NCBI RefSeq assembly: GCF_041648055.1
Contig: NZ_JBAZPS010000008.1
Location: 28,742-92,741, forward strand
Origin: Brevundimonas sp.
Lineage (GTDB): Bacteria; Pseudomonadota; Alphaproteobacteria; Caulobacterales; Caulobacteraceae
DNA length: 64,000 nucleotides
Direction: 5' to 3'
Translations under genes and position numbers: made by a program
The notes under the pieces: generated by a model
What the model was told of the DNA's origin: nothing
The model's database searches: none
What the model saw: only the letters and a program-made list of their open reading frames with translations
Part shown: in pieces, positions 11,589-39,165 of the stretch
How the letters are laid out: every line of letters begins with the position of its first letter
How positions within the stretch are numbered: position 1 is the first letter of the stretch

Positions 11589-12117
11589 CCGACGGGGCAG
11601 TCCGGGGGCCATCCGCCCTCGGCGCCGGACGAACACCGACACCTCATGTCTTGCGTTGAGCGCCGGTTTCGACCCAGCACGGCTGTGGGATTTCGATAGA
11701 GGGCCTTTCGCGCGGGCGCTCGGACGACGGGGAACGTCCGGCGATCCTCAGATCTGGAGCCAAGAGACGCCAATGGCTCGGCAGCGATCGCGGGGAAGAT
11801 GTTGAGCGGAGCACGCTTGTTTCTAGCCCGCCGCTACGAACGATCTGATGGCGATTGCCATGGAGTTCCGCTCAGCAGCCTGCGCCAAAAGTCCGTTCTG
11901 CGAATTGGGCGCCCTAAGTCTGATCCGCACGATCCCATCCGCGCATGATGACCCCCTACTCGACGTCAAGATATGCTGATCGCGCATGCCGTCATCCTCC
12001 CGCCGAGCGCAGTCAGGAGGATGTGCCCCGGCTTCTTCGGCGCAGCGGTCAGATTCGCTCCGCCGAAAAGACATATATTCATTGGGCGTCACCCGTGGTT
12101 GTCTCGATCTGCGCCGG

Positions 12118-12939
12118 TTAGGGCGCCGCCTGTCGAGGCGCGACCAGCTTAGGGAAGTAGGGCGGCGGCTTGCAGGGCGCGCCGGCGATCAGCGGATGCA
12201 CCTTGGCGAGTTTCACACCGAGGCATTGCGTTACGAAATCGCCCGCGTCATAGGCCCCTGGCGCGCCTTCAAATGACTGGTGGTGATAGACGGCGTTTCG
12301 CGCATCCCGGATGCGGTCGAGCCAAGTCACCGCGAGTTGCTTCGGAACCATTTGCCCCTTGAAGACGAACTTGGGCGCGAAGAGCGACCAGTGGTCCTCA
12401 ATCAGGAAGACGAGGTGTCCGAAGTCGCAGGCTGTCAGGAGCTCGTTCCCGGTGCGAAAGCTGGTGACCGCGACCTTCTTGTCGATCAGGGACTGCAGGA
12501 TTCGCCCCATTCGGTAGGGAATCTCGCGGTTGATGTCGACGTTGCCGATGCGCGTCACCGACCGGGGATCCCACGCGCTCGACATCAGCCCTTTGAGTAC
12601 AGGGTTCCACCAACCTTGGATGCCGTAGTGGGTCTCCAGCTCGACGGCGAGGCTCGCGCGCAGGGCGGTCTCGACCGTGTGGAACATCGGGAACATCTGA
12701 GCGTGCTCAGCGACCTTGCGATTGTAGATTCGGTAGATCGCGTCGCGGATATCGCCCTCAGCCGGTTCTTCCGGCAGCTTCTTTTTCGCGGTCGCCGCGA
12801 TCTCCTGGATGGCGCCGCTCAAAAGCTGCGAGCTGACGACCGACAGGTCCGTTCGGAGACGGTCGATTACGGCTTGGTCGGGTCGCTGCGGCAGGGCGTC
12901 GATGAGGGCGTTCAGGGATTCTGTGATAGACTTGGTCAC
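12118..12939 (-). CDS. Abi2 (AbiD/AbiF-like) HEPN-family abortive-infection protein
   Basis: 273 aa; FGHLVFLIEDHW ... WLDRIRDARNAVYHHQ matches the Abi_2 pattern FGxL ... RNxxxH (Rx4H HEPN motif). Confidence 0.6.
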   Translation of the reverse strand: MTKSITESLNALIDALPQRPDQAVIDRLRTDLSVVSSQLLSGAIQEIAATAKKKLPEEPAEGDIRDAIYRIYNRKVAEHAQMFPMFHTVETALRASLAVELETHYGIQGWWNPVLKGLMSSAWDPRSVTRIGNVDINREIPYRMGRILQSLIDKKVAVTSFRTGNELLTACDFGHLVFLIEDHWSLFAPKFVFKGQMVPKQLAVTWLDRIRDARNAVYHHQSFEGAPGAYDAGDFVTQCLGVKLAKVHPLIAGAPCKPPPYFPKLVAPRQAAP

Positions 12940-13187
12940 GCGCCGACGCCCCCGCTCCAGCCCGGCGCATTGACGAACCGGGAAACAAACCTCATATTCA
13001 CGGCACTCCAGCCACGTCGTTCCGTGGGTTCGTTACCAGCCGCAAGGCTGGCGTGGAATGAGTCTAAACAGACTTCCAAGGGCCGCCGCGAGGCGGCCCT
13101 TCTACTTTGGGCCTCGATCCGAGCGGTCAGGCCGTCGCCTTCCACCTCGTGCGTCGAGACCGGATCGGTCACGGCTCCACCAAGGGT

Positions 13188-15311
13188 TCAAGTCTTGAGC
13201 GAGAGCTGCAGCTTGTCCTGATAGACCCTGATGCGCTTTTTCGCCCTGGCGACGACGTCGTCGTAGAAGAGGATTTCGGAATAGGTCTCGCCCAGTTGTC
13301 GCCTGGCCACCGGGTCGCGGAGCTCACCTGAGGAAAACCAGCCCGTGCCGGTCGGAAACTGGGTCCAGGTCTCGCCGAGCCGCAGCGGGTTGAGCGTGTC
13401 GCCGATCAGATAGCAGTAGAAACGGTTGAGCTTGCCGCCGGACTTGGCCGCAAGGAGATGGGCGTACTCCCGCAGGTCGCCGGTGTGATCGTCCATCGAC
13501 ACGCCAGGCGCCTTGAACTCGACAATGATCGCCGACCCCTCCTTGCTGAAGAGCGCGATATCGGGGCGTTTCGCGGCATGGTCATTGGAACGCTCGACCA
13601 ACAGCTTGGCGAACTCGCGATCGATATCGTCCTCGAAGACGGTCTCGTCCCCCTCCCAGACGATACTGGCCAGCGGAACATCCGACGCGATGTAGTCGTA
13701 GTACTGGTAATCCTCGCTCAGCAGCCAGATGTCGTGATCGGTGACGTCGGTGCTGTCCCGCCGCATCGGGAAGAAAATGCTGTGAATGATCCGTTCGTCC
13801 TTGCGGCGGACACCATCCGCCAACGACTGCATGGCGAGGTTCTTGCCGCAGGCCAGGGCGAGAATTTCCACGATGGCGGCGCGGCGAACGACGAGCTGGG
13901 ACAGGTTCGCCATGTCGAAATTCTTGAGCGACGAGGTGTACTTCCAGGCCAGCTGGTTGATCTTCGCACGGAACTCCTCGGAATCCGGTTCGGCGCGGAT
14001 GATCTCCTCCTTCAAGTCGAAGATTTCCGCCGTCTCCTCGATGACCCGCTCCTGGTACTTCTTGAGCACGCGCTCGACCACGGACTGCGCCGGCTCGCCA
14101 TAGACGATGCGCGTCGAGGTGTCGGCCAACATGGCTTCGCTCACACCGAACTGGTCGGTGAGCTCCTTGATCACGACCTCCTTCGTCCAATCCGCCGGAA
14201 CGACCATCTCCTCGATCACGGGATCGATGGCGGCATGGATGTCGGCGTAGGAGAGGGGGTCCGAGGCGAAGAGGTCCGTGGTCGGGATCTCGGCGGGAAT
14301 GTCGTCGAAGCCGTCGCGCTGTTCGTTCACCCGTTGGTCGAGGAAGTCGCTCTCCACGAGGACGATGTGGTGAAAGCCGCCGACAGGGTTGTTCTGCTCG
14401 GTCTTCGTACGGAGGTAATAGCCTGTGATGTCCTGCACCGGAGAGGATTTGGCGCAGAAGGCGATCGCATTCCTGGGCAGGCCGAACTCGGCGGCGTCCA
14501 GCTGATAATGCGAGAGCCGGAAGGTCTGATGGACCCCGGTCCCCTCGCCCGTCGACGGATTCCGCTCCTCGACCTCTACCGACCGTGTCGCGGTCACTTT
14601 CGGAAGATCGGCCCGCTTCAGCACTTCTGTGTTGGCGTCGCCGTCGCCATGGCGGGTCACAAAGGCGATGCCGAAATCCCCCAGGCGTTCATCCAGCCCG
14701 ACGAGACGCTGGAGGAAGGCCATGAGCATCTGACGCTTCAGCGCTGCAGCGGAGAAGAGCGTGCTGGGGGCCGCCCCCGCGAAGCGCGGCCGCGCCGTCT
14801 CCTTGAAGGCGCCGAGCGACAGCGCCGTGCCGATAACCGTCTCAGCGCCGGGCGTTTCCGAGAAGTCCTCGAAATCGATCTGCTTGGTCGGCTCGGCATA
14901 ATCCATGCGACGATGGATCGCCTCCCCGCCCCGCCTGAACGTGCTCTCGATCGATAGCGAACCGAAGTAGTGGAAATACTGAATGCGCCCCGCGCCCTTA
15001 CACTTGCCGATCCCGGCGATGTGCAGGTCGTCCTTGTATGACGTGTCCTTGGTGAGGAACGCCTTCAGCTGATCGTCACCGAGCCCGCAACCGTTGTCGC
15101 GACAGCGCACCGACATCACCTCGAGCTCGCCGAACAGATCGCTCGTCCTGAACACCACGTCCACACGGACATCGAGCGCCGGCGCCGAAGGCTCGGCATC
15201 CTTCCGGATCAGGTAGGAGTCGATGGCATTCGAGATCAGTTCCTCGAACACAACATAGGGGTTCGTACTGAGCTTCGTATTCTTGATGCTGCCCCGGATA
15301 TCGAGCGTCAT
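13188..15311 (-). CDS. GHKL (HATPase_c_3/MORC-like) ATPase with C-terminal PD-(D/E)xK, Shedu/DUF4263-like nuclease domain
   Basis: Start set at ATG 15311 (MTLDIRGS); Bergerat-fold motifs EELISNAIDS and CRDNGCGL; C-terminus RPDIALFSKEGSAIIVEFKAP preceded by IIHSIFFP...DIWLLSEDYQYYDY. Confidence 0.75.
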   Translation of the reverse strand: MTLDIRGSIKNTKLSTNPYVVFEELISNAIDSYLIRKDAEPSAPALDVRVDVVFRTSDLFGELEVMSVRCRDNGCGLGDDQLKAFLTKDTSYKDDLHIAGIGKCKGAGRIQYFHYFGSLSIESTFRRGGEAIHRRMDYAEPTKQIDFEDFSETPGAETVIGTALSLGAFKETARPRFAGAAPSTLFSAAALKRQMLMAFLQRLVGLDERLGDFGIAFVTRHGDGDANTEVLKRADLPKVTATRSVEVEERNPSTGEGTGVHQTFRLSHYQLDAAEFGLPRNAIAFCAKSSPVQDITGYYLRTKTEQNNPVGGFHHIVLVESDFLDQRVNEQRDGFDDIPAEIPTTDLFASDPLSYADIHAAIDPVIEEMVVPADWTKEVVIKELTDQFGVSEAMLADTSTRIVYGEPAQSVVERVLKKYQERVIEETAEIFDLKEEIIRAEPDSEEFRAKINQLAWKYTSSLKNFDMANLSQLVVRRAAIVEILALACGKNLAMQSLADGVRRKDERIIHSIFFPMRRDSTDVTDHDIWLLSEDYQYYDYIASDVPLASIVWEGDETVFEDDIDREFAKLLVERSNDHAAKRPDIALFSKEGSAIIVEFKAPGVSMDDHTGDLREYAHLLAAKSGGKLNRFYCYLIGDTLNPLRLGETWTQFPTGTGWFSSGELRDPVARRQLGETYSEILFYDDVVARAKKRIRVYQDKLQLSLKT

Positions 15312-15515
15312 AGTCGTGTCGGCCCGTCTTCGAGGTGTCGCCCTTCCCTCTCCAGACCAGCGCCCAGAGGGCAAGTCAAGACGACTTTCTTCGCTCCACG
15401 AGACGTCCGCGACCGCACCTGGCGCAGGCGAACGACTCTGGAACACTCGCGCAATGCGGGTATCATCGCCCCTCGTTCAAGCCGCTGGAATCACTCCGGC
15501 GGATCGGGGGAAGTC

Positions 15516-17948
15516 TTGACGGCGTTCGAAATCCAGAATGAGAACCGGAACCCGGGCTCCGCTCTTCGGAACGAGGCGGCGAACTACCTCAGCGGTCTCT
15601 ACGGAAACGGCCGCACCGAGATCCTGATCGCTGGAAAGAAGGTCGACGGCGTTTTCGAGCGAGACGACTTCGGAAGCCGCGAGACGATCATCCTTGAGGC
15701 GAAGGACTACGCGCGCCCCCTCCATCGGGACGACCTCAAAGCAATCTGGTCGGACTATGAGACGGTTCTGGATGAAGTGCGGCCGGCCAAGCTTCTGGTC
15801 ATCTCCCGTCACGGTCTGGCTCCCGGCGCACAGGCCTATCTCGATACCCGCCCGCCGATGCGGCACCGCACGATCTGGGAGCTGGAAGACGAGGTGCTGG
15901 GCCTGCGACCTCACACCCAGGCGATGGCGGCCGCCTTTGAGGAGGGCGGGCTCAGCCGGTTCTACATCGAGGCCCGAGCCGCCGAGGTCGCGTATGATGC
16001 CGACATGGCCGAATCCGAAGGCGAGGTCGTCGGTCTGATCGACGAGGTCGTGGCATGGCTGGCTACGGAAGACCCCACGCCGCTGGCGATCCTCGGCGGT
16101 TACGGGGCCGGCAAATCGAGTTTCGCCAAACGCCTCGTGACGCAGCAGGCGGCGCAGGCTCTGACGGATCCCAGCGCTCGCCGTCCGATCCTGATCAAGC
16201 TCGGCGGGCTGTCCCGCTACAGCGATCTGGAGGGCTTCCTCGGCGCGATGCTGACGAGTCAGCACAATGTCCGGGGATACAACTTCACCCGCTTCCTGGA
16301 CTTCAACAGCAAGGGCCGTTTCCTGATCGTCCTCGACGGCTTCGACGAGATGAAGCACGCGATGTCCTTCTCGGAGTTCCGCGCGCAGGTCGGTCAGTTC
16401 AATCAGCTCATCACACCGGGGGCGAAGGTGGTTCTGCTGGGCCGCCCCTCCGCATTCACCACCGACGCCGAACACCACTATGTACTGAAAGGGCGCATCC
16501 CTGCGCAGGATCGCTGGCGCAAGCTGCCGGGCTGGCCCGAGTTCAGGGAGTACCGCCTCGCCGATTTCAGCGACGCGGAGCGCGATCTCTTCATCGCCGG
16601 CTTTCTGGCCTATCAGGCCGGAACCTCGGGCGATGGGGGTGCGGATGCGGAGTGGGTCGACAAGCGTCGCCAGGAGGTGTCCGAACTCGCGGCGGCGGAC
16701 CCTGCGGTTTTCGGACGCCCCGTCCATCTGAAAATCCTCGCCGAAATGGCGGCGGACCGCGAACAGGATCTGACCCGACTGCGCCGAAGCCCGTCGCGCT
16801 GGTCGCTTTATGATGAGTTCTTTCAGTCGCTGGCGCGCCGTGAGGCCGAGAAGCCCGCCCGCACCCCCATCGGCGAGAAAGATCGACTTCGTTTCCTGGC
16901 CGAACTCGCCTTTTGGCTTTGGAGAGATCGGGCCGCAGCAACGAGCTTCGTCGCGGAGGTCATTCCATCGGACCTTCTCGCGGACTTGCCGGATGGAGAC
17001 GCGCACGAGGTCGAACACAAGCGTCGGGAGTATCTCGCCGGGGCCTTCCTGGAGCGGAAAGCCGGCGACATCTATTATTTCCCGCACCGGTCGTTCGCCG
17101 AATTCCTCGTGGCCTCCCGGATGTTGAGCTGCCCGCCGCAGGCAGGCGACCATGTCCTCTACGGGACCCTCGCGCAGGAGGGCGTTCTGGAGTTTCTCCA
17201 GACCCCCGAAAACCAGCCCCGCCTCCGCGCCTGGGCGGAAACCTTCGTCTCGGCGCAGGGCTCGCTCCGGCCGAGTTACATCCGCCTTTTGATCGATGCT
17301 TTCGGCGGACCAAACCCGCTCATCCAGCACATTCCTTCAACCTACTGGACATTGCCGATCCGACTGATCGGCGGATCGTTGAAGATCGATCCGTCGAACC
17401 TGGCGCCTCTGCGGACCGCGATGATGCAGGCTCGCGTTCCCGAGCTGGCGCTCGCACTGCAGTTGCTCGAGCCTCACGGCGTTCTCGCCTCTGAAGACAC
17501 TGTCCGTCAGGCGCTGGAGCCGATGATCGCCGGCGTCCTGATCGAACGAACCCTGGGACACGTCCGAGAGCTGCCGCAGAATGATCGGCTCTCGGTCGAT
17601 GGCGAAGAGGGCGAGCGCATGCGTGCGCTTGCGACCGCGGGGGTAAAGGAAATCGCGGCCGGCCGCACAGGGCGCGTGGTGTCCATGAACTGGCTTGGAC
17701 TGCTTGAAGGGGCCTGGGCGGCGAGCCAGGCGCACGGCGTCGTCCTCAAGACCCACGCCCCTCAACAAGCCTCGGGTTACCCACCCCTCGAACTGCCTCT
17801 CGATGTCGTGCTCTCGACGATCCCGGTGGCATCCCGCCCACGGATTCAAGGGTTTCTGCATAAGCTTTCCGACCTGCGGCACATCATCGTTGTCGCGCGC
17901 CGTAACCCGCGCACGATCGCAGCGGATCGGCCAATCCGGAGGCCCTGA
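15516..17948 (+). CDS. STAND NTPase: N-terminal Mrr-type restriction-endonuclease-fold domain + NACHT ATPase + helical C-terminal region
   Basis: 810 aa; TTG start 5 nt after GGGGGA; VDGVFER...IILEAKDY (D..ExK); Walker A GGYGAGKSSF; Walker B FLIVLDGFDEM typical of NACHT. Confidence 0.8.
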   Translation: MTAFEIQNENRNPGSALRNEAANYLSGLYGNGRTEILIAGKKVDGVFERDDFGSRETIILEAKDYARPLHRDDLKAIWSDYETVLDEVRPAKLLVISRHGLAPGAQAYLDTRPPMRHRTIWELEDEVLGLRPHTQAMAAAFEEGGLSRFYIEARAAEVAYDADMAESEGEVVGLIDEVVAWLATEDPTPLAILGGYGAGKSSFAKRLVTQQAAQALTDPSARRPILIKLGGLSRYSDLEGFLGAMLTSQHNVRGYNFTRFLDFNSKGRFLIVLDGFDEMKHAMSFSEFRAQVGQFNQLITPGAKVVLLGRPSAFTTDAEHHYVLKGRIPAQDRWRKLPGWPEFREYRLADFSDAERDLFIAGFLAYQAGTSGDGGADAEWVDKRRQEVSELAAADPAVFGRPVHLKILAEMAADREQDLTRLRRSPSRWSLYDEFFQSLARREAEKPARTPIGEKDRLRFLAELAFWLWRDRAAATSFVAEVIPSDLLADLPDGDAHEVEHKRREYLAGAFLERKAGDIYYFPHRSFAEFLVASRMLSCPPQAGDHVLYGTLAQEGVLEFLQTPENQPRLRAWAETFVSAQGSLRPSYIRLLIDAFGGPNPLIQHIPSTYWTLPIRLIGGSLKIDPSNLAPLRTAMMQARVPELALALQLLEPHGVLASEDTVRQALEPMIAGVLIERTLGHVRELPQNDRLSVDGEEGERMRALATAGVKEIAAGRTGRVVSMNWLGLLEGAWAASQAHGVVLKTHAPQQASGYPPLELPLDVVLSTIPVASRPRIQGFLHKLSDLRHIIVVARRNPRTIAADRPIRRP

Positions 17949-18130
17949 ATTCCGCTCGCGCGAAGCCCTTCCCGGCGTCGTGCGGCGCGGTTGTGCAGGC
18001 GACGCGCGATCATCGGAGAATGGCCGACCGAGGCCGTGGGTGCGTGGTGAGGTGACGTGGGCGCCGAACGTTTGCACCTGATCGACGGACCGGGACCGCC
18101 GACAGGAGCGGCGCGCCGCCCAGCCGTCAC

Positions 18131-18973
18131 TCAAAAGGGCGAGAGCGCCAGGTCGACCCTCTCGATCAGGGCCCGAAAGAGTTCAGCCGTTTCGGTCACA
18201 TAGGCTTTGGTGAAGACCGTCAGCTTCTCGTTGTTCTTGTCGCGGCCGTTTCGATGGACGCAGTCGTGACGATGCTGAATCGCGACAAACAGCTTCTCCC
18301 TCTGTGTTTGCTCCTTGAGGAGTTCGACCTCCAGAGCGATCCGGTACAGCGTGTCGACCTTCGCGAGGTTGTGGTAGCGGATGTCGGCCAGATAGGCCCC
18401 GACCCTGTCTCGGATCAGGCCGGGATTTTCCTGGATCTCCGCCAGGGTGAACCTTTCCTTCGCCAGTTCCTTGTCGCCGGCGAGAAGCCGCCCCAGACGC
18501 TTCTCGTCGCCCAGCACTTCCTTGAGAAGCGTGTCGCCGAGGAAGGCTTCGAGAGCCGCAACGTGCTGAGAGAAGACCATCCGATTGATCAGGGCGCCGC
18601 CGTCGTCCGAGCCGTGGGCATCGAGATAGGCCTGCGCCTGCTCGAACGACTCCGCCCAGATTGAGAGCGGGTTTTCCGGGAGAGCGTAGTCGGACCAATC
18701 CTCCTCGGGAGAGTAGAAGGCGACATCCGCCGAAACCGCCGTCTCAGGATGGGCGTTGAGCCTGACCTCGCAACTGCCTGCGCTGTTCACGACATAGGCC
18801 TCAAAGACGGTTTCGCAGTGGGGGCATTCGACCTCGGTTTCGCCCTCGGAGTTCAGGTCCGACATGCTTTCGGCTGCGCTCCAGTCCGGCTCGGGCACCT
18901 CCGCGCTCGTGACCGCCAGGGCGTGGCAATCCGGGCATGTGAACTGGATCTGCGTCTCGAAACGTTGGGTCAT
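18131..18973 (-). CDS. zinc-ribbon + HEPN-like (Rx4H) domain protein
   Basis: 280 aa; CPDC ... CPHC pair in first 65 aa; C-terminal helical domain with IQHRHDCVHRNG (R-x4-H). Confidence 0.5.
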   Translation of the reverse strand: MTQRFETQIQFTCPDCHALAVTSAEVPEPDWSAAESMSDLNSEGETEVECPHCETVFEAYVVNSAGSCEVRLNAHPETAVSADVAFYSPEEDWSDYALPENPLSIWAESFEQAQAYLDAHGSDDGGALINRMVFSQHVAALEAFLGDTLLKEVLGDEKRLGRLLAGDKELAKERFTLAEIQENPGLIRDRVGAYLADIRYHNLAKVDTLYRIALEVELLKEQTQREKLFVAIQHRHDCVHRNGRDKNNEKLTVFTKAYVTETAELFRALIERVDLALSPF

Positions 18974-19295
18974 GCGGGCGCGGTCCTCTTGAATGGGCGG
19001 GGGTCGGCATTGGGCCGACCGCGCGAACGCCAGATATCGCGGAACAGGACCGACTTCGCCCCCCAGTTGCTGTCTCTGGACAGACTATCACACGACCGGA
19101 GTAGAACGACGCCCTCCGAAGCTCCCAATACGCAAGAAGTTCGGTGATCGTCCGCAAAAAAGTTGCGGGTCACACGCAATCTATTGGCGGTCAAAATATA
19201 ACCTTGCATTGCATCAAATATATCTGCACTAACTTGTGTAATCGGATCGGCCTCCCCCCGTTTCCCGGTCCGCCCATTGTTCAGTCGAGGGCGTC

Positions 19296-19898
19296 ATGCA
19301 GACTTCCGAACCACGAGACCCCTATGGAGCGGCTCTGGGTGCTCTAAAGCGGTTCGCCGAGGCGGGCCGGTTTGTTCCGGGCGAGCCGATCGTGGTGACG
19401 GAGCTGGCGGCGGAGGTGGGATTGAGCGCCACGCCGGTCCGGGAAGCCCTGGCCTGTCTCGCGGGACAAGGGCTCATCGAGCGCAGACGCGGACGCGGCT
19501 ACTTCTACCCGTCGCTGAGCCCGGCGGAGATCATCGACCTGTTCGAACTCCAGCTCGCCTATCTCCACGCCGCGCTGACCCTCTACCCCCGCGGGCTCAC
19601 ACCTTTGCGCAAGGCGGCCGTTGCGGTCGATCCGCTCGACGGCGTTCAGGCCCTTTTCGACGCGATCATCAACCAGTCGACCAACGCCGCGCTTGTGCTG
19701 GCCCATCAACGTGTCGTCGACCGGCTCAAGGCCGTTCTCAAGGCCGAGCGCATCCATGAAGAAACTGACGGCGCGACCGTAAGGACCATGGTGGAGGTGA
19801 TCGTCGACGGGCGGATCCCGGCGCTCCTGGGTCTGCTGGAATCCTATCACGAGCGCCGCTGCTCACGCACAACGATCCTGGTGATCGAGGCCGCCTGA
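19296..19898 (+). CDS. GntR-family transcriptional regulator
   Basis: 200 aa; wHTH VTELAAEVGLSATPVREALACLAGQGLIERRRGRGYF. Confidence 0.8.
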   Translation: MQTSEPRDPYGAALGALKRFAEAGRFVPGEPIVVTELAAEVGLSATPVREALACLAGQGLIERRRGRGYFYPSLSPAEIIDLFELQLAYLHAALTLYPRGLTPLRKAAVAVDPLDGVQALFDAIINQSTNAALVLAHQRVVDRLKAVLKAERIHEETDGATVRTMVEVIVDGRIPALLGLLESYHERRCSRTTILVIEAA

Positions 19899-19903
19899 TC
19901 CCC

Positions 19904-20554
19904 TCACTCCGTCCCACTTCGCGCCACCTCTTCCCGAGGCCCGACGCCGGCGAAGACCAGAGCGGCCAGTGCGCCAGCCGCCCCGATGCGCCGGTCATGG
20001 TAGCGCCCGACGGTCGCAGCGAACGCGGGCGCGGCCTCCTCATTGTAGGCGGTATAGAGCCCTATCGCCTCGTCACAGAGATCGTCAAACAGGGTCGCCT
20101 CATGGCGGCGCACCAGATCGAGCTGTCCGCTCACCTTCTGAAATCCGTCCCACAAGGCCTGATTGCCGGCGCTGCAGACGATGGTCGCGAACAGCCGGTT
20201 CACGGCCGCTATGGGACGACCGTGTTCGTAAGCGGGCGCCGGCGGACGCACGGCTCCGAGGGCGCGCAGGTTCACCTCGACGGCGATGCGGACGTAGTGG
20301 CCATGCATCGCCCAACGGTCACGGGCTGCGGTGGCGTCCAGCCGCAGGGTGACATAACCGCCGGTCGACGCACGCTCGACCAGTCCTTCTCCGCTCAGCC
20401 GAGCAAGAGCCTCTCGGATCGGCGTGGTCGACAGGCGCAGCCGCCGGGCCTCGTCCTGAACAATGACCGGCGACCCGCCGGCCAGGGCTCCCGAATGAAT
20501 ACGCTCACGCAAAGACGACAGCGCCTGGGTGAACGGGTCGCGATTACGCGCCAT
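19904..20554 (-). CDS. GntR-family transcriptional regulator
   Basis: Start set at ATG 20554 (MARNRDPF); wHTH EARRLRLSTTPIREALARLSGEGLVERASTGGY; upstream part of the 468-aa track ORF is low-complexity. Confidence 0.8.
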   Translation of the reverse strand: MARNRDPFTQALSSLRERIHSGALAGGSPVIVQDEARRLRLSTTPIREALARLSGEGLVERASTGGYVTLRLDATAARDRWAMHGHYVRIAVEVNLRALGAVRPPAPAYEHGRPIAAVNRLFATIVCSAGNQALWDGFQKVSGQLDLVRRHEATLFDDLCDEAIGLYTAYNEEAAPAFAATVGRYHDRRIGAAGALAALVFAGVGPREEVARSGTE

Positions 20555-20800
20555 GTTCAGATTCCGATCTGCTCGGACCCCGGTCCGCCCCCTGATCGTC
20601 CACCCAAGCATCGTTCCCCAGACCGGCGAGTTCGTCTGCGAAAATCTTCTTCGGACAGGCCGCCATGCTCTGGCGCGCGCCCCGCCGATTTCTTGCGGGT
20701 TCTTCGTCTCGCTCCGGAACCATTCAAAAAAGTCGCACACGCCTGCATTGATTCGACACACCCAACACAGCACCTTCAGTGGTGAAAGGTCGAATCGCCT

Positions 20801-21289
20801 ATGCTTTCCGATCCACCAGAAAAGTTGAGTGATGCACGGCTGATCGGTCTGGCGGCGCGGACGGTGCGGCGTGCCCGAAACATGACCGCCCAGCAGGTGG
20901 CGACCGCCATGAACCTGCCGCTTCGCACCTACGAATACTTTGAAGCCGGCGCTGGCCGGGTGAACCTCGACTACGTTCACCGGTTCGCCGTCGCGACGAA
21001 CTGCGACCCGTGGTCGCTCTTGCTCGGCCCTTCGCTCGGCTCGATCGAGTTCGCGCGTCAGACGGCTGACAGCAAGCTCATGCTGATCTTCCTCATCGCC
21101 CTGGGCGAGTTCGTCCGGAAGATGGGAGACCGGCTTTTGACGCTCGATCCCCGCGCCCTGATCGAGGCCTTCACCGAGACCTTCCGCAAGCTGGAGGAAG
21201 AGAACCGGGCCAAGAGCGAGGAAACCGAGTCCTGGCTCGACGCGGGCCGCGACCGTCTGGCGGGCAAACCGCCGGAAGATGAGGTCTGA
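20801..21289 (+). CDS. XRE-family helix-turn-helix regulator
   Basis: 162 aa; RRARNMTAQQVATAMNLPLRTYEYFEAG HTH_3-like. Confidence 0.75.
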   Translation: MLSDPPEKLSDARLIGLAARTVRRARNMTAQQVATAMNLPLRTYEYFEAGAGRVNLDYVHRFAVATNCDPWSLLLGPSLGSIEFARQTADSKLMLIFLIALGEFVRKMGDRLLTLDPRALIEAFTETFRKLEEENRAKSEETESWLDAGRDRLAGKPPEDEV

Positions 21290-21302
21290 GCCGCAGCAGT
21301 TG

Positions 21303-21326
21303 AAATACACGACAGATATAGATTGC
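21303..21326 (+). promoter_or_regulatory. conserved 24-nt element AAATACACGACAGATATAGATTGC, copy 1, 91 nt upstream of precursor A1
   Basis: Identical 24-mer at 21632-21655, the same 91-nt distance from the A2 ATG; A/T-rich in a GC-rich context. Confidence 0.45.
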
Positions 21327-21393
21327 CGCTGGGGTCACCGCGGGCGCTCCATGACCTGCCGCAATCCGCGGCGACTTGCGAATGGAGGCTACC

Positions 21394-21513
21394 ATGACCA
21401 GCACCGTTCAGATCCGACTGATCGGCTTCGGACCCGTCACCGCCCTCACCCGGGGCGCCATCGTCGGGCCGCCGCTGGAGATCGAAGAGACGCCGTTCGA
21501 CGGCGTGGCCTGA
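21394..21513 (+). CDS. lasso peptide precursor A1 (39 aa)
   Basis: Hand translation MTSTVQIRLIGFGPVTALTRGAIVGPPLEIEETPFDGVA; GGAGG 5 nt upstream; Thr at -2, Gly1 and Glu9 of putative core; directly upstream of B/C genes. Confidence 0.8.
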   Translation: MTSTVQIRLIGFGPVTALTRGAIVGPPLEIEETPFDGVA

Positions 21514-21521
21514 TCGCCCGG

Positions 21522-21547
21522 GACGAGCGTCGTTCGCGGCGCTCGTC
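21522..21547 (+). terminator. stem-loop after precursor A1 (possible attenuator)
   Basis: GACGAGCG (21522-21529) pairs with CGCTCGTC (21540-21547), 10-nt loop; no long U tract. Confidence 0.45.
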
Positions 21548-21631
21548 TTGCCCCACATTGAGGATGACCGGTCGCCCGACAGCCGTCGCGGCGACGTTTG
21601 TGCATTCGCTCCTGTCCGATCGACAAGGCTC

Positions 21632-21655
21632 AAATACACGACAGATATAGATTGC
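21632..21655 (+). promoter_or_regulatory. conserved 24-nt element, copy 2, 91 nt upstream of precursor A2
   Basis: Identical to 21303-21326. Confidence 0.45.
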
Positions 21656-21722
21656 GACCGCCGGCTTCGGAGCGGCTCCATAGGCTGCCGCAATCCTGCG
21701 GCCTCACAACCTGGAGGCTCTC

Positions 21723-21842
21723 ATGACTGGCATCGCTCAGATCCGACTGATCGACCTCGGTCCCGTCACTGTTCTGACGAGGGGCGCGGTGATCGGCCCG
21801 CCCCTCGAACACGAGGAAATGCCGTACGACGGCGGGGCCTGA
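21723..21842 (+). CDS. lasso peptide precursor A2 (39 aa)
   Basis: Hand translation MTGIAQIRLIDLGPVTVLTRGAVIGPPLEHEEMPYDGGA; GGAGG 5 nt upstream; same leader/core logic as A1. Confidence 0.8.
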   Translation: MTGIAQIRLIDLGPVTVLTRGAVIGPPLEHEEMPYDGGA

Positions 21843-21849
21843 CGGCCTC

Positions 21850-21881
21850 GGGGACGAACGCCTTTTGCGGCGCTCGTCCCC
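21850..21881 (+). terminator. stem-loop between precursor A2 and the B gene (possible attenuator)
   Basis: GGGGACGA (21850-21857) pairs with TCGTCCCC (21874-21881); inner CGCC/GGCG pairing; TTTTGC loop. Confidence 0.45.
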
Positions 21882-21901
21882 AGCCGCCGCGCGCGTGCCT
21901 C

Positions 21902-22588
21902 ATGGAGAACCAGACCTTCGATTCCCCCACGCCCTTCGTCGCCGAGCCGGGGAGCGCTCTCGCCCACCTTTGGGAGCATCTGCATTTTGCTGTCGTCGAT
22001 GAAGACGTCATTGTGCTCGATGAACGGACGGACGCTTACAGCTGCCTGCCCGGCGCCGGAACGGTGATACAAGTCCGTGGCGACCTTATCGTCGCCCCCG
22101 AACCCGTGCTGGAGCAACTTCGGGACGGCGGGTTTCTCGGCCCCTCGGGTGAGACCCGGGCCGTCGCGCCGCCGGCGCCGACCCGAGCCCTTCCCCTGCC
22201 GCCGTCGCCTGCGATCGATGTGGTTGCGACCACGCGGTTCTGGTGGTCCTGGTGGCGCGAGGGACGGAATTTCGAATCCCGATCCCTCGCGAGTCTGCTC
22301 GCCACGCACCGCCGGCGCTCCCCCTCCTCGAGCCTGTCCGAAGAGGAGGTCGCCCGTCTGACGGCGGCCTTCGTGCGCCTCCTGCCTTGGGCGCCGGGAC
22401 AGGGCGCCTGCCTCTACCGGGCGCACCTGCTGAGGACCTTGATCCGGGACGCAGGCGGAGACGTGCGATGGGTGTTCGGGGTTCGCACCTGGCCATTTTC
22501 CGCCCACTGCTGGCTGCAGGTCGGCGACGCGGTGCTCGACGACGAGCCGGACCGGGTCGCCGTCTACACCCCGATCATGGTCGTCTGA
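21902..22588 (+). CDS. lasso peptide maturation protein B (PqqD-like RRE fused to transglutaminase-like Cys protease)
   Basis: Start at ATG 21902 (MENQTFD); N-terminal FAVVDEDVIVLDERTDAYSCL (PqqD-like); C-terminal GACLYRAH ... FSAHCWLQVGDAVLDDEPD (Cys/His/Asp); the track ORF start 21548 reads through A2 in another frame. Confidence 0.85.
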   Translation: MENQTFDSPTPFVAEPGSALAHLWEHLHFAVVDEDVIVLDERTDAYSCLPGAGTVIQVRGDLIVAPEPVLEQLRDGGFLGPSGETRAVAPPAPTRALPLPPSPAIDVVATTRFWWSWWREGRNFESRSLASLLATHRRRSPSSSLSEEEVARLTAAFVRLLPWAPGQGACLYRAHLLRTLIRDAGGDVRWVFGVRTWPFSAHCWLQVGDAVLDDEPDRVAVYTPIMVV

Positions 22589-32378: not shown

Positions 32379-32896
32379 CGGAGACTCCAGGTCAGCATGT
32401 GGGTCTCGAGCGTCGTCTTCTCCTGATGCGTATCGGTCGCGACCAGCTCGTAGCCCTCGATGGTCGAGCCCTTCAAAAGGTCGGCGGCGACCGCGAACCG
32501 CACCCAACCTTCGACGGTGTGATGGGCGTCGATGCGCAACGGCATCAGGAGCATCGGCACGCTCTCGTCGGCATTGGGGATCGCCGGCGCCAACAAGGTC
32601 AACGGAATCTCGCGGCGGTGGCGGATGCACAGTTCCAGCCCGGCGACACTGTTGGCTGTGTCGGTTGGGTTGGCGATCTGGAGGTGGATGGCGAACGATC
32701 TCTTCCCGTCGATGTCGGAGACCTTGGAGTCGATGAGGCGGAGATCCAGCCGGGGCGCGCGACGGGCTTCCTGCCGCTCCGCCAGTCGCTGAGCGCGGTG
32801 CGCAGTGATCCAGCTCATGATCGCAACGACAAAGGCGGCGAGGGAGACGAGACCGGTCGCGATGGCGATCACGTCAGACGAGGTGAGACCTTTCAT
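32375..32896 (-). CDS. hypothetical single-pass membrane protein (173 aa)
   Basis: N-terminal TM helix VIAIATGLVSLAAFVVAIMSWI followed by a probably beta-rich domain; ATGA overlaps at both ends. Confidence 0.6.
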   Translation of the reverse strand: MKGLTSSDVIAIATGLVSLAAFVVAIMSWITAHRAQRLAERQEARRAPRLDLRLIDSKVSDIDGKRSFAIHLQIANPTDTANSVAGLELCIRHRREIPLTLLAPAIPNADESVPMLLMPLRIDAHHTVEGWVRFAVAADLLKGSTIEGYELVATDTHQEKTTLETHMLTWSLR

Positions 32897-33756
32897 CCGA
32901 TCGCCTCGCGCTTGCGGGCGATGCGCACTTCGGCAGCCGCATCCTGTGACGCCCTGAAAGGCCCATAGTCGGCCGAGATTTCCCCGAGGCGAGTGTTGTT
33001 CTCCTCATCGCCGACGATCTGGGTGAAGGCGACTCCCAGGGCGATCCCGATCATCAGGATGCGATCGAGCGTGTCGGCGATCCGCTCGGGATCCTCGGGA
33101 CCGACCAGATAGCCGTTCCAGCTCTCACCGTCGTCAGCCATCCTCATGTGCCGCTGCAGGGACTTGCCGGAGGGGTGAACGGCATCGTCCGACATCACGC
33201 GATAAAGGAGGTACAGGTGTCCCAGAGGGCCGAGCTCCGCGAGCTTCGAGATGTTCAGGTTCGACACGGATCCGATGCTGTCCACAACATCCTGAAGCAT
33301 CGCGGCGTCCGCGGACATACCGCTGCGGAGGATCGTTTTCGCCTGCCCCTTCTTGGCGGCGGCGGCATCCTCGATCATCACCGCGCGCGCCTTGTCCGGA
33401 TTGTCGTGAAGCGCGGCCATCAGCAGGGTGTTCTCCAGCAGTCCGCGCGCCAGTGTCCGCGCCTCAACATCCATGCCGCGTTCGGCCATCAGCACCGCTC
33501 CCTGCAACTGGGCGCAGGACCGATGCAGGAGAAGCAGGGCCATCGGCTCGCGGTCGAACGGCATGCCCCGCACGGTTTCGCAGGCCGCGGTGGCGGCCTT
33601 CTGAAGGCAGGCATTGAGGGCTTCGACGAGTTCGAACCCGAGGGCGTTGCCGTTCCGCCTGGCCTGGATGCGGTCCGAGATCGCCGTCGACAGAAAGCCT
33701 GCTTCGTTGAAAGTCGTCATGCTGCGGATAACACGGTCGTCCCGTCTTGAAGGCAA
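32893..33756 (-). CDS. hypothetical all-helical protein (DUF5677/AbiV-like impression only)
   Basis: TTG 33756 has GGGAGAG 7 nt upstream; alternative ATG 33720; helical sequence with ARGLLENTLLMAAL and SDDAVHPSG; family assignment from memory and weak. Confidence 0.55.
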   Translation of the reverse strand: MPSRRDDRVIRSMTTFNEAGFLSTAISDRIQARRNGNALGFELVEALNACLQKAATAACETVRGMPFDREPMALLLLHRSCAQLQGAVLMAERGMDVEARTLARGLLENTLLMAALHDNPDKARAVMIEDAAAAKKGQAKTILRSGMSADAAMLQDVVDSIGSVSNLNISKLAELGPLGHLYLLYRVMSDDAVHPSGKSLQRHMRMADDGESWNGYLVGPEDPERIADTLDRILMIGIALGVAFTQIVGDEENNTRLGEISADYGPFRASQDAAAEVRIARKREAIG

Positions 33757-33818
33757 GGGTCGTCTCTCCCTACCTAGGATTCACGCCCAGGGCGCACGGG
33801 GAGGGACTATTCGGCGGG

Positions 33819-36800
33819 ATGACGCAGCAAGGGTTCAGCGCGAAGGACATGGTCGGGGCCCGCGCCTTGTTGGCGTGGTCGCAAGCTGACCTGGCCAAGG
33901 CGGCGAATATTCACCCCAGCGAGGTCGCTGACTTCGAGCTCGATCGGCGTGAGGTCAGGCCTGCCGCCATCGAGGCCATGACTGAGGCGATCGCAGACGC
34001 CGGCGTCCGGAACGACGATCAAGGCCTCAGCCTCATTGAAGATCCCGCTGCGCCGACCCCCTTCTCCGGCGGGAACCCGACCCGCTTGATCGAGGCTTCC
34101 GACCTCGTCGTCTGGGCCGACAGCCGCGACGGCCAGGCTGGCATGCCCGAGCTTCTGAGCCGTTTGATCCGCGCCGAGCGCGGGGTCGCCGCCAGAGTTC
34201 GATTCCCGTCCGGCGACAGCGTCGCTCAACATGGCTGGGACGGCGAGGTCCGCGTTGTCGGCGCGTCGGTCAGGATTCCGGATGGCCAGTCGGGGTGGGA
34301 AACCGGGACCGACCAGAACAAGAAGTCAAAAGCCGATGGAGACATAGAGGCCCGAACGACGGATCACGGCGACCTCGACCCGGCGGATACGACGTTCGTC
34401 TTCGTAACGCCCCGTCGTTGGGCAAAGCAGAAGGACGTCTGGGCCAAGGCGCAGCGCGCCAAGCGCATCTGGAAGAACGTCCTGGCCTATGACGCCGACG
34501 ACCTGGTGGACTGGATCGAGTGCCATCCCGGCGTCGGCCAGTGGCTCGCAGTCCGCCTTGGCAAGCGCCCTAGAGATCTGAAGTCACTCGCGGACCTCTG
34601 GGCGGACTGGTCGGGCGCGACCCAGGTTCCGTTGAGCGGAGAGCTTACATGCATCGGACGCGACGAGGATGCTGCGGTCGTCCTGCGGTGGCTTTCGGCC
34701 CCCGCCTCAGAGCCGCTGTTCGTTCAGGCCGAGTCCGTCGAAGAGGCGGCGGCCTTTTTCCATGCGACGATCGAGATGTTGCCTGATCGGTACTATCGCG
34801 CCGTGGAAACCCGCGTCCTGGCGCCGGAAACATCGGCAGCGGCGGCGGAGCTTGCCGACGGCCTGACGCCGCTCATCCTCATCCTCAACGAGACGGAAGC
34901 CGGCGTCGCTCAGCGGCTCTCTCGAAAGGGCCATTATATCTACGTCGCCCTGGGCCCGAACTCGGAGGCGCCTGACTCAGCGCGTCGGTTGGCGAAGCCG
35001 ACCCGGAACCAGCTGCAGCAAGTGTTGGAGCGGATGGGCCTCGAGTACGGCCAGGCGCAGAATCTCTCGCTCGACGCCGGCCGTAGCCTCGCCGTCCTTC
35101 GCCGTCTCATGCCTGCGGCACCGGGCAGCCGTCCATCCTGGTCGATCCCGCAGCCGCCTCGTCCGATGCTGGGTGCGCTTCTCGCCGGCGGATGGCTCGA
35201 GACGCTGGACGGCGACAAGGCCGTCATCGAACAGCTGGCCGGCGTCCCGTACGAAGAGGCCGTCAGAGCGCTCGGGCCATACGCGACCGCTCTGGACGGG
35301 CCTCTGCGCAAGCGCGAAGACGCGTGGCGACTGAAATCGCCTCGCGACGCCTGGACCCTCCTCGCGCATAGTCTGACGGCTCCGGACATCGACCGCTTCC
35401 TGTCCGTCTATTGCGAAGTCTGCGCCGAGATCGATCCGACATGGGACATGGCGCCGGACGAGCGCTGGCTGGCTCCCATTCGGAACATCCACCCGCGTTT
35501 CTCGTCATTCCTGAAACAGTCGATGACGGAAACGATGGCGCTTCTGTCGTTGTACGGCGACCGGGCGGGTCTGGTGGACGGCGTCGAGGCGAAAGTCGCC
35601 AGGTCCCTCACCACAATTCTGGACGGCGCCACGGAGGCGATCTGGTGGTCCCTCGGACCCGTCCTGCCGAAGCTGGCGGAGGTCGCGCCTTCGGCCTTCC
35701 TTGGCGGCATCGAACGTGCGCTCGGCCCGACGCCCAGCCCACTGATCGCCTTCTTCGAGCCCGAGACGTCGACCCACACCGTCACGCGGCTTCCCCAGCT
35801 GATGTGGGCCTTGGAAAGACTGGCCTGGGATCCGGCTCTTCTGCCTCGGGTCGCCGACGTCCTGGCGCGGCTCGATGCGCTGGATGGGGGCGGCAACAAC
35901 GTCGCCCGTCCGAAGCAGGTTCTCACCACGATCTTCCTGTCGTGGTCTCCTCAAACCCACGCGACGCTGAAGCAGCGGCTGGCCGTCATCGACGGCCTGC
36001 GCAAACGACATGGAGACATCGCCTGGGATCTCATGATCTCACTCCTGCCGCGCTCGCACGCGATCACGATGCCGACGTCGTCTCCGCATTGGCGCAAGGC
36101 CGCGCCAACCGACCGCGAGGCGTCGCCTGAGACGGTCGTCCACGACTGCGTCGTAGAGGTCTCAGACCGGCTGATCGAGGATGTCGGCAATCGGCCAAAG
36201 CGTTGGAAGGCTCTGCTCAAGGCCATGGAGCTCCTTCTGCCCGACGCTCGGGCTGGGATCGGCCAGAAGTTGCTGGAGGCGGAGCCGACGATCATCGGCG
36301 AAGAGGATCGCGACTTCACGCGCACGGCCCTTCGGAAGGTCCTGGCTCGCCACCTGGAATTCCAGGACGCGGACTGGTCGATCCCGGCGGATGAATTGAC
36401 GGTCTTCCAGACCACCCTCGAGCGGTTCAAACCCGAGGATGTCCTCTGGAGGCATGCCTGGCTGTTTTCCAACGGCACCGGCTGGATGGGTTCCGTGCGC
36501 GAGTGGCGTCAGTCGCTGGACGAAGCGACCGCCGCCCGTGCGGCGGCCTTCGAGGAGATCGTCGAGGTGCGCGGAATCGACGGCGCGCTGGCCCTCCTCG
36601 ACCGATGCGATCAACCCCGGTGGGTGGGAGAGGCGGTAGCGCACTCGCCCGCCGCAGCGTCCTGGCGGTCAGACTTCATCGAACGCGGACTGGCCTCCGA
36701 TGACGGGCCGCTCTGGCAGGCCGCAGCCGAAGCGATCGGCCTTCTACGCGAGAAGGAAGGCGGCGCCGATTTCGTCACCCGCCTGCTGCCGGCGCCGGCC

Positions 36801-37871
36801 CCCCAACTGGACGAACGCGTGGTCGGACGCCTGCTCCACTTCCTCCCGGCGCGCCCCGAGACCTGGTCGGCGGTCGCGGCCTACGGCCTCTCGTCAGAAG
36901 ATCGCTACTGGCGTACTCTCGCGGGGTGGGCGGTGGCTGAGACCAAAGAGGAAACCGAGCACGCGATCCGGCGCTTCAACGTCGTCGATCGCGCTCGTGA
37001 CTCTCTCCATCTGATCGGAAGCCGCCTTGAAGTCGACCTCGATCCAAAGCTGATCGTCGAGACGCTCCACTTGGCGCTGAAGACGATGAACCAGGCGAGC
37101 GAGGACACGAACGAGCCGGTGATGCGGCTCCACTACCTCACGCGGATCCTCGCCCACCTCGAAAACCATCCCGAGGTGTCGGACGAAACCTTGGTCCTGC
37201 TCGAGTGGTACTACTTCCACATGCTGCGGTACTCCGAGCGACCCAGCCCGGCTTTACACCGCGAACTGGCGAGGAACCCGGACTTCTTCCTCCAGGTGCT
37301 GACCATGGTCTTCCTGCGGGACGACGACGGCGGCGGCGCAGACGAGGACCTCCCGGGCGGACCCGCGACGCCGGAACAGCGGGCCGCCATGGCCCGGCAC
37401 GGCTACGATGTGCTGGATGCTTGGAACCGCATCCCCGGCGCAGACGACAAGGGGCGGATCGACGGCGCCGAACTCGAGCGGTGGGTCACGGAAGTGCGCC
37501 GCCGCGCGTCGGAACTGGGACGCAGCCTGCCGGCTGACCTCCGGATCGGCCGCATCCTCGGGATGAGCGCAAAACCAGCCGGCGAGGTTTGGCCTCCCAT
37601 CGCCATCCGCGAGATTCTCGAGAGCGCAGGATCAGAGACCCTGGAGGATGCTTTCGTCTCGGGTGCGTATTCATCGCGCGGAGTGATCACCCGTGACCTG
37701 AGGGAAGGCGGTCGCAAGGAGCGGACGCTGTCTGACCGCTACAGAGATCACTCGTCGGCGATGGCGTCAGACTACCCCGTCACCGCCCGGCTACTGAATG
37801 ACATCGCCGATATCTACGACGGGCGGGCGAAGCGCGAAGATGACGAGGTCGAGGAGCGGAGCTGGCACTGA
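33819..37871 (+). CDS. very large (1350 aa) HTH-domain protein of unknown function
   Basis: Start set at ATG 33819; N-terminal XRE-like HTH ([27 protein letters not shown]); no Walker A seen by eye; long helical remainder. Confidence 0.75.
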
Positions 37872-37889
37872 GATGCCAGCCGAGCGTGA

Positions 37890-38813: not shown

Positions 38814-39165
38814 CGCGATGACTCTAGCGAGAAATTCGCGTTCTGCCGGATATATTTTGGCCGACCGGCACAGATACCCACGAAGCTAGGCTGGAGGCCG
38901 CACAACCGTTAGTCTCACTCCGAGAGCGGCGGTCACGCCGGTGGGATCATCGCTGAAAACCACCCTAGAACCTGCCCCTCGCGCCACAGAGGCCGTCGCC
39001 AGGGAGCCGCGCATTCTTCGAGTCTTCGCCCACCTCGCCAACCTCACCCAAGGACTGGCCGCACTTCGAAAGCCGTCGCTCCAGCGGATCACGACACGGC
39101 TCCACCGCGAGCATCTCCGGCGGAACGTCGCGTCCGCCGGGCTGCGGCATGGATCGGGCCGTCGC

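Follow-up and report, generated by a model that had tools for sequence, protein, structure and literature searches.

The 64,000-nucleotide stretch of Brevundimonas sp. DNA analyzed here (contig NZ_JBAZPS010000008.1, positions 28,742 to 92,741; hereafter the window) carries a gene for a 707-amino-acid (aa) protein in which an N-terminal GHKL ATPase is joined to a C-terminal PD-(D/E)xK nuclease. The protein is an uncharacterised addition to the paraMORC3-type GHKL-nuclease fusions and not a new architecture, an assignment made by the features described for that group and not by comparison with its 2008 seed sequences. Our preferred reading, to which we give a probability of roughly 60%, is that it is a stand-alone, horizontally mobile enzyme of the paraMORC3 type, most likely a single-gene innate immune nuclease directed against phage or plasmid DNA and acting like VcSduA of Vibrio cholerae. 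Its predicted activity would thus probably be that of an ATP-gated anti-phage or anti-plasmid nuclease. The domain folds, the conserved catalytic residues, the lack of a conserved partner, and the residence in integrative and conjugative elements (ICEs), plasmids, and defence islands are directly supported by the data below.

The open reading frame (ORF) runs from an ATG at 15311 to a stop codon at 13188-13190, and upstream of 15311 the same frame stays open as far as a GTG at 15446. The N-terminus MTLDIRGS is common to 30 homologues, with M1, T2, L3, and D4 invariant, and the gene start was therefore placed at 15311. The GC contents of the first, second, and third codon positions (0.61, 0.42, and 0.82) are typical of a real gene, the genome having 67% GC. 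We detected 712 homologous clusters of 706-715 aa with 65-94% identity to the window protein, and a further 961 representatives with identities down to 22%, including full-length relatives at 22-30%, were found in an exhaustive search of 1.84 billion representatives. Together, the codon bias, the same-length clusters, and the additional representatives exclude a chance ORF. Scans for promoters and terminators around the gene gave nothing better than shuffles. The ORF and the motifs quoted for it in the first-pass annotation of the window (EELISNAIDS at aa 23-32, CRDNGCGL at aa 70-77, and RPDIALFSKEGSAIIVEFKAPGV at aa 582-604) were verified at their coordinates, and two further quoted strings, IIHSIFFP and DIWLLSEDYQYYDY, are both present in the translation.

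That annotation had proposed a GHKL/Bergerat-fold ATPase at the N-terminus, and Pfam, profile matches in the PDB, and Foldseek all agreed with it. Pfam placed HATPase_c at aa 19-93 of the window protein, in which no Pfam match rose above threshold. Conservation was assessed in a sample of 48 relatives, 20-55% identical to the window protein; HATPase_c was found in 19 of them and HATPase_c_3 in 8, and the matches to HATPase_c_3 and to the nuclease family HSDR_N emerged only from scanning these relatives and not from the window protein alone. When a profile of the 48 diverse relatives was run against the PDB sequences, only GHKL proteins were retrieved (Topo VI-B at an E value of 5e-4, as well as TRAP1, histidine kinases, PMS2, and MutL), and a close-family profile gave chance matches only. 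The ATP-binding motifs are almost invariant in the sample (Table 1). Position 109 in the ATP lid is R in 43 relatives and K in 5, and position 162 is T in 42 and S in 5.

An AlphaFold2 model of the whole protein (30 homologues as input; mean predicted local distance difference test [pLDDT] score of 73) is alpha/beta over aa 1-185, beta-rich over aa 186-325, disordered over aa 326-354, and helical over aa 355-500. Over the N-terminal half, Foldseek matched the two-domain modules of Hsp90/TRAP1, GyrB, SMCHD1, MutL/PMS2, and Topo VI-B in the PDB (E values of 2e-10 to 1e-7) in alignments spanning 330-470 columns; the N-terminal fragments of MutL/PMS2 covered both domains over 330-396 columns, with template modelling (TM) scores to the target of 0.44-0.51. 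Since these alignments take in GHKL and transducer domains together, part of the middle of the protein is a classical transducer. The middle had earlier been described as about 350 aa of unassigned helical sequence, a description that holds for approximately aa 355-500 only, aa ~186-325 being the beta-rich transducer. Within the transducer, 38 of the relatives have a lysine and 7 an arginine at position 288, which is thus basic in 45 of 48, and K288 (codon 14448-14450) is a candidate gamma-phosphate-sensing lysine. The conserved N-terminal aa 1-19 may, judging from their invariance, form a dimerisation strap. Pfam gave no match in the linker and helical region (aa 326-500) of the window protein; R477 in the latter is invariant among the relatives, and aa 355-500 might serve as a clamp arm or provide a second interface for dimers.

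For the nuclease half, the C-terminal 213 aa were modelled alone from 64 sequences (pLDDT of 86.5, predicted TM score of 0.84). The model displayed the alpha-beta-beta-beta-alpha-beta order of restriction-endonuclease-like enzymes, with D584 opening one strand and E598-x-K600 closing the next, and its top Foldseek matches (NucS/EndoMS, R.BspD6I, SfsA, McrC, and SgrAI) were all PD-(D/E)xK enzymes. D584, K600, and Y616 were found in all 48 relatives and E598 in 47, while the position of E533 holds E in 46 and D in 2. E506 and W529 (48/48 each) and H510 (47/48) are similarly conserved, and position 612 is Q in 40 relatives and D in the clade of the window protein. The PD-(D/E)xK nuclease with a D...ExK core proposed for the C-terminus was thus borne out, with intact catalytic residues and a modelled fold in agreement. 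Furthermore, the near-invariance of both the ATPase and the nuclease residues in the 48 relatives indicates that both enzymatic centres are under selection. Pfam matched HSDR_N in 34 relatives (best E value of 1e-6), HSDR_N_2 in 7, and VRR_NUC in 5, besides weak matches to Cas4. The motif layout E-D-ExK-QxxxY is of the RecB/HsdR-N type, and by sequence, the N-terminal nuclease of HsdR is the best neighbor of this domain.

Table 1. Positions of the gene and of its domains and motifs in the window (counts refer to the 48 relatives)
Feature	Position	Strand	Basis
Whole gene, 707 aa plus stop: GHKL ATPase, transducer, helical region, PD-(D/E)xK nuclease	13188..15311	-	ORF, same-length homologues
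GHKL (Bergerat-fold) ATPase domain, aa 1-185	14757..15311	-	Pfam, PDB profile matches, Foldseek
GHKL motif I, EELISNAIDS (E24 catalytic base, N28 Mg2+ ligand)	15216..15245	-	E24 and N28, 47/48 each
GHKL motif II, CRDNGCGL (D72-x-G74-x-G76, adenine binding)	15081..15104	-	D72, G74, and G76, 48/48 each
Glycine-rich ATP lid, GIGKCKGAGR (G106, G108, R109)	14985..15014	-	G106 and G108, 48/48 each
Beta-rich transducer (S5-like) middle domain, aa 186-325	14337..14756	-	Secondary structure, Foldseek
Disordered linker (aa 326-354) and helical region (aa 355-500)	13812..14336	-	pLDDT, DSSP
PD-(D/E)xK nuclease domain, aa 501-707, motifs E533...D584...E598-x-K600...(Q/D)612-xxx-Y616	13191..13811	-	Separate model, Pfam, Foldseek
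Catalytic core strands RPDIALFSKEGSAIIVEFKAPGV (D584, E598, K600)	13500..13568	-	Conservation, verified coordinates

The first-pass annotation could not assign this combination to a named family, but the architecture is that of paraMORC3 (2008) and of Shedu type I-D, to which VcSduA, validated in 2025, corresponds. ParaMORC3 proteins, as defined by Iyer, Abhiman, and Aravind in 2008 (PMC2292703), carry a GHKL domain, an S5 domain, and a C-terminal restriction-endonuclease-fold domain with an E-D-ExK motif and RecB-like affinity. They are prevalent in Proteobacteria and Bacteroidetes and are laterally mobile, and the nuclease-bearing subset, proteobacterial members included, consists of stand-alone genes without a conserved neighborhood; the group is a computational prediction only, and the paraMORCs were first defined through restriction-modification (R-M) neighborhoods (PMC2292703). 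The window protein shares with paraMORC3 the N-terminal GHKL domain with intact ATP-binding motifs, including the conserved T162, a transducer-type, putatively S5-like second domain with a conserved basic residue (position 288), and the C-terminal restriction-endonuclease fold with E-D-ExK and RecB-type affinity. It is likewise stand-alone, laterally mobile, and proteobacterial (alpha, beta, and gamma; ICEs and plasmids). The helical region of ~150 aa that separates transducer and nuclease in the window family is an addition relative to paraMORC3.

GHKL-fused nucleases were classified as Shedu type I-D by Gu et al. (2023, bioRxiv 10.1101/2023.08.10.552793), and Adams et al. (2025, PMC12137116) described V. 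cholerae VcSduA (A1552VC_00276), a GHKL domain combined with DUF4263. VcSduA protects against T1-like phages and vibriophage X29 at every multiplicity of infection tested, loses its activity through either E27A in the ATPase or K557A in the nuclease, and functions alone once moved into E. coli (PMC12137116). It is thus the experimental precedent for a direct restriction of phages that requires both ATP and the nuclease. Like VcSduA and type I-D, the window protein is a single polypeptide with GHKL, a clamp-like middle, and a C-terminal PD-(D/E)xK domain, encoded by a stand-alone gene in a mobile island, and E24 and K600 (43 residues further along than K557) are the equivalents of the two mutated residues. 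VcSduA was, however, reported with DUF4263/SduA_C, for which the window protein and 47 relatives gave no match. With canonical Shedu (B. cereus 8ti8 and 8ti9, E. coli 8ps4), the protein has in common the PD-(D/E)xK domain, the ExK-P strand, the terminal strand-helix element, and the organization as a single gene with a variable N-terminal part, which in Shedu, a defence system, is regulatory. Canonical Shedu is a tetramer with a non-ATPase N-terminal regulatory domain, whereas a dimerising GHKL ATPase is expected here. The resemblance to HsdR (HSDR_N and HSDR_N_2) lies in the same E-D-ExK-QxxxY arrangement, in the Pfam matches given above, and in the location of distant relatives in hsd operons; here, in contrast, the nuclease is C-terminal and not N-terminal, and a GHKL ATPase takes the place of the DEAD-box motor. 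No match to the superfamily 2 translocase families ResIII, DEAD, or Helicase_C was obtained by Pfam in the window protein or the 48 relatives.

The nuclease had also been called Shedu-like (DUF4263), and this did not hold. Pfam SduA_C/DUF4263 (PF14082) matched 0 of the 48 members at an E value of <=0.01 and had no match in the window protein at <=1, and none of the NCBIfam and PADLOC Shedu models was matched. Solved Shedu structures were not among the 50 Foldseek matches listed for the nuclease model, and no Shedu chain was retrieved from the PDB sequences with either the close-family or the diverse profile. As a positive control, a Shedu protein from a V. fluvialis plasmid scored an E value of 1e-25 against SduA_C and found 8ti8, 8ti9, and 8ps4 in the PDB sequences at E values of 5e-34 to 4e-7. 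Using hhalign with an SduA_C profile of 58 homologous sequences, we obtained probabilities of 4.6% for the window family (P = 0.0087) and 7% for the merged superfamily profile (P = 0.0049), compared to 0.2% for reversed decoys (P of about 0.3; 0.33 for the window-clade decoy). On the strength of the Pfam, PADLOC, NCBIfam, Foldseek, and hhalign results, backed by a positive control and reversed decoys, membership in Shedu was thus rejected at the family level.

A clade of 672-aa distant relatives, here called Vibrio-type, came closer to SduA_C in the same comparison, with a probability of 41% (P = 2.9e-4) over 95 collinear columns that comprise the ExK strand, the following helix, and the terminal strand with its F/Y-D-E/D-L helix. 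The same clade was aligned with the nuclease domain of the window family at a probability of 99.3%. These values suggest a faint, remote relationship to Shedu, as expected inside the PD-(D/E)xK superfamily and maybe somewhat closer, and not membership. We therefore consider it unlikely that the window protein is a true Shedu-family member (type I-D, VcSduA-like) in which a divergent SduA_C/DUF4263 nuclease is controlled by the GHKL module as a sensor or regulator. Such membership would fit the domain order, which is the same as in VcSduA and Shedu type I-D, the above-decoy signal of the window clade (P = 0.0087 versus 0.33), the stronger signal of the homologous Vibrio-type clade, and the residues E27 and K556 or K557 in Vibrio-type relatives, which are numbered as, or adjacent to, those mutated in VcSduA. 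It is opposed by the SduA_C count of 0/48 where HSDR_N reached 34/48, by the unmatched NCBIfam and PADLOC Shedu models, by hhalign probabilities of only 4.6-7% for the window clade and merged profile, and by the absence of any Shedu chain from the PDB sequence-profile searches, in a library where the control protein found them, and from the 50 Foldseek matches listed. Moreover, the one relative with exactly E27 and K557 comes from Photobacterium damselae, in a context other than the Vibrio seventh pandemic island II (VSP-II), and has no DUF4263 match.

Over their full length, the Vibrio-type relatives share 22-23% identity with the window protein (pairwise E value of 2e-23), and they reside within type I R-M operons. 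One cluster at >=90% identity includes sequences from E. coli, Proteus, V. cholerae, V. parahaemolyticus, Shewanella, and Aeromonas, and its spread over these genera suggests that it is cargo of SXT/IncC-type elements. The protein of this cluster, that of V. cholerae included, has E27 together with K556, not K557. Relatives found in IMG/VR were not in VSP-II and had no DGQQR or DUF262 neighbors. VcSduA may belong to the same superfamily as the window protein; the numbering could be a coincidence, and we treat this as a lead and not as a result.

Three loci of these relatives were inspected individually. On the V. fluvialis IncC plasmid pIDH5335-1 (locus L088, 2619-6013), the gene for a 672-aa relative (23% identity) begins 4 bp ahead of the point where a bona fide Shedu gene (SduA_C E value of 1e-25) ends, both lying downstream of hsdM-hsdS. 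In Salinivibrio (locus L090), the same 672-aa-type protein follows hsdR-AAA-hsdM-hsdS, and the Shedu gene is absent. The P. damselae locus (L098, 5001-7022; a provirus call in IMG/VR) encodes a 673-aa relative with E27 and K557, the numbers mutated in VcSduA, for which Pfam gave no DUF4263 match. It is flanked by genes for an LPD38/LPD1 polyvalent protein and a HAD hydrolase, has a GC content of 38.6%, and is not VSP-II.

With regard to genomic context, the family comprises >700 clusters at 90% identity, and its members are 65-73% identical across alpha-, beta-, and gammaproteobacteria. We fetched 80 loci from different species and clustered every ORF within 4 kb all-against-all over 82 loci. 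No neighbor family was present in more than 6 of the 82 loci, and no cluster containing a neighbor from the window reached 4; the gene is therefore regarded as stand-alone. Of the two options raised by the first-pass annotation, stand-alone action or partnership with the adjacent HEPN/NACHT genes, these data agree with the former and speak against the latter, neither of the two neighbor families recurring. The genes downstream also differ per lineage, encoding a 174-aa protein, a 99-aa protein, none, or the type VI secretion system protein Hcp.

We accordingly rate as highly improbable a multi-gene system in which the protein works with the adjacent HEPN-like or NACHT-Mrr gene, or with an unlinked R-M system that marks self and non-self. 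A 94%-identical relative does retain the NACHT neighbor, together with a downstream small ORF and a 291-aa ORF that resembles the HEPN-like gene in a comparison of size only. The gap from the stop codon to the next small ORF is 34 bp in this relative and 15 bp in the window, so that co-transcription is possible, and an R-M link could be seen in the distant relatives embedded in hsdR-hsdM-hsdS operons and in the R-M neighborhoods that first defined the paraMORCs (PMC2292703). Nevertheless, the HEPN-like, small-ORF, and NACHT families are non-recurrent, none reaching 4 of the 82 loci, the downstream genes differ in each lineage examined, and VcSduA works alone in E. coli (PMC12137116).

Homologues were repeatedly found on mobile elements. 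The Caulobacter homologue lies in an integrative element with an integrase, ArdA, and imuA-imuB-dnaE2; that of Xanthomonas in an ICE region with ParB_N, DUF932, and RadC, and with Hachiman HamA nearby; that of Chania in an island adjoining an integrase fragment; and that of Sinorhizobium beside SIR2 and DarT on a plasmid of the conjugative type. A homologue was present on 25 plasmids, 13 of which are conjugative or mobilizable, and in none of 50,697 phage genomes. The nearest ORFs in 60 loci included integrases, PtuA/AriA-type ATPases, MmeI, HsdS, RES, Schlafen-AlbA, and MADS, a census that had no background control and is descriptive only. Searching a 5.8-billion-protein database with the diverse profile returned mostly the close clade, and no annotation was gained.

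In the window, the gene lies inside a stretch of lower GC content (0.62-0.65 versus 0.68-0.70) that directly follows a cbb3 oxidase/ccoI cluster, and the defence-type island location first suggested for it was supported. A search of the whole window for tRNA genes returned none, and no integrase was among its Pfam-scanned ORFs.

The N-terminal module also permits a reading outside immunity, namely, a DNA-repair, recombination, or element-maintenance factor in which a MutL-like ATPase-nuclease processes DNA intermediates of the element or the host. Structurally, aa 1-330 or longer are matched best by MutL, GyrB, Topo VI-B, Hsp90, and SMCHD1, which share motifs I-III and a conserved basic residue in the second domain, and modules of the MutL/GyrB type are the source of the ATP-driven N-terminal dimerisation (clamp) mechanism proposed below. 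Their effectors differ (the C-terminal metal-binding endonuclease of MutL, TOPRIM, or client-binding domains, as opposed to PD-(D/E)xK here), they are vertically inherited housekeeping genes and not mobile cargo, and Pfam found no MutL_C in the window protein or the 48 relatives. A repair role would be in line with the closeness in fold to MutL/PMS2, GyrB, and Topo VI-B, with the imuA-imuB-dnaE2 mutagenesis cassette adjoining the Caulobacter gene, with the unusually high conservation (65-73% over three proteobacterial classes), and with the repair role raised by Iyer et al. for stand-alone paraMORC3 (PMC2292703). On the other hand, the window family has a sporadic, element-bound distribution and no fixed genomic position or partner. 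Its neighbors are dominated by defence and mobile-element genes and not by repair genes, distant relatives sit inside R-M operons, and conserved partners of the MutS, helicase, or repair type are lacking. A repair or maintenance function is thus, in our judgment, rather improbable.

If the protein is an immune nuclease, as we favor, a mechanism can be proposed by analogy. ATP binding would close the lid and bring the ATPase domains at the N-terminus together as a dimer, in the manner of MutL, GyrB, and Topo VI-B, and in the resulting clamp, the transducer/middle and helical parts would hold DNA. Clamp closure would then position or license the two C-terminal nuclease domains, so that the trapped DNA is cut, and hydrolysis, for which a lysine of the transducer (K288 being the candidate) would be the sensor, would reset the enzyme. 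Dimerisation, DNA clamping, ATP gating of cleavage, and the immune role itself are what we infer for the protein from its architecture and context.

Several observations weigh against this interpretation. The association with defence is one of neighborhoods without a background control, and the family is absent from the PADLOC 2.0 models and has no significant match to any NCBIfam family. Some loci adjoin mutagenesis or repair genes such as ImuAB-DnaE2, which also fits DNA repair. Foldseek support for the nuclease fold was weak, with a best E value of 0.025 and none at <=1e-3. The likeness to VcSduA was judged by architecture and not by its sequence, and the nuclease fails the SduA_C test; the analogy with VcSduA is therefore one of architecture.

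More tentatively, and short of even odds in our estimate, the family could represent a distinct, widespread single-gene immune system in which a GHKL clamp ATPase drives a RecB/HsdR-N-type nuclease that is kin to Shedu only at the superfamily level. Such a protein would recognize invading DNA by clamping, in an ATP-dependent manner, onto structural features such as ends, supercoils, or replication intermediates, and not through modification status. The window protein would then belong to a stand-alone, ICE-borne branch, the other branch being embedded in type I R-M operons that SXT/IncC-type elements carry in Vibrio, E. coli, and Proteus.

What makes the family notable is mainly its size and very strong conservation, together with its lack of annotation and its escape from the defence-finder models tested: its members are labelled only "hypothetical" or "ATP-binding protein," and no entry of PADLOC 2.0, Pfam, or NCBIfam covers it in full. 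If it is active, >700 clusters from soil, plant-associated, and clinical Proteobacteria would join the GHKL-driven immune nucleases, the paraMORC3 design would work with a nuclease outside the SduA_C family, and a second, very well conserved model would become available for the gating of DNA cleavage by GHKL dimerisation. Its location as ICE and plasmid cargo bears on gene-transfer barriers in rhizobia, Caulobacter, Burkholderia, Pseudomonas, and Xanthomonas. It is a concrete and cheap candidate for validation rather than a conceptual surprise.

The surroundings of the gene were also described for one homologous locus and for the window. On plasmid pBSY16_2 of Sinorhizobium sp. RAC02 (locus L093, 7282-10625), a 69%-identical homologue is followed by an opposite-strand SIR2-family gene, the end of which overlaps the start of a gene for a second, 672-aa "ATP-binding protein"; a gene for the single-stranded DNA ADP-ribosyltransferase DarT comes next, and the region is a dense defence island. 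In the window, the drop in GC content after the cbb3 oxidase/ccoI (P-type ATPase) cluster marks an island at 11600-22000 that holds the gene. The HEPN-like gene at 12118-13032 matches HEPN_Swt1 weakly and encodes the Rx4H motif RNAVYH; ahead of it lies an ORF of 78 aa, beginning 15 bp past the stop codon of the nuclease gene. The pair (12118-13172, minus strand) gave weak PADLOC matches to PDC-M34B and PD-T4-5, and a small RNase or toxin-antitoxin-like module is a possible reading. On the other side, an 810-aa protein is encoded at 15516-17948 on the plus strand, divergently from the nuclease gene, with matches to a NACHT NTPase (E value of 8e-6) and, weakly, to an N-terminal Mrr_cat (7e-3), and none in PADLOC. 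Its sequence reads as that of a bacterial nucleotide-binding leucine-rich repeat (NLR)-like protein with a nuclease-type effector.

A second defence-like cluster was observed at 32893-42345. It consists of a DUF5677 gene (32893-33780, minus strand), a gene for a 1379-aa helix-turn-helix protein (33732-37871, plus strand), a gene for an HEPN-domain protein (37890-38885, minus strand), and a gene for a 1151-aa protein without a Pfam match (38890-42345, plus strand). On the contig of the 94%-identical relative, a DUF5677 gene and a 1354-aa gene directly adjoin the NACHT/nuclease pair; the two clusters of the window could thus belong to a single island, uninterrupted in other genomes.

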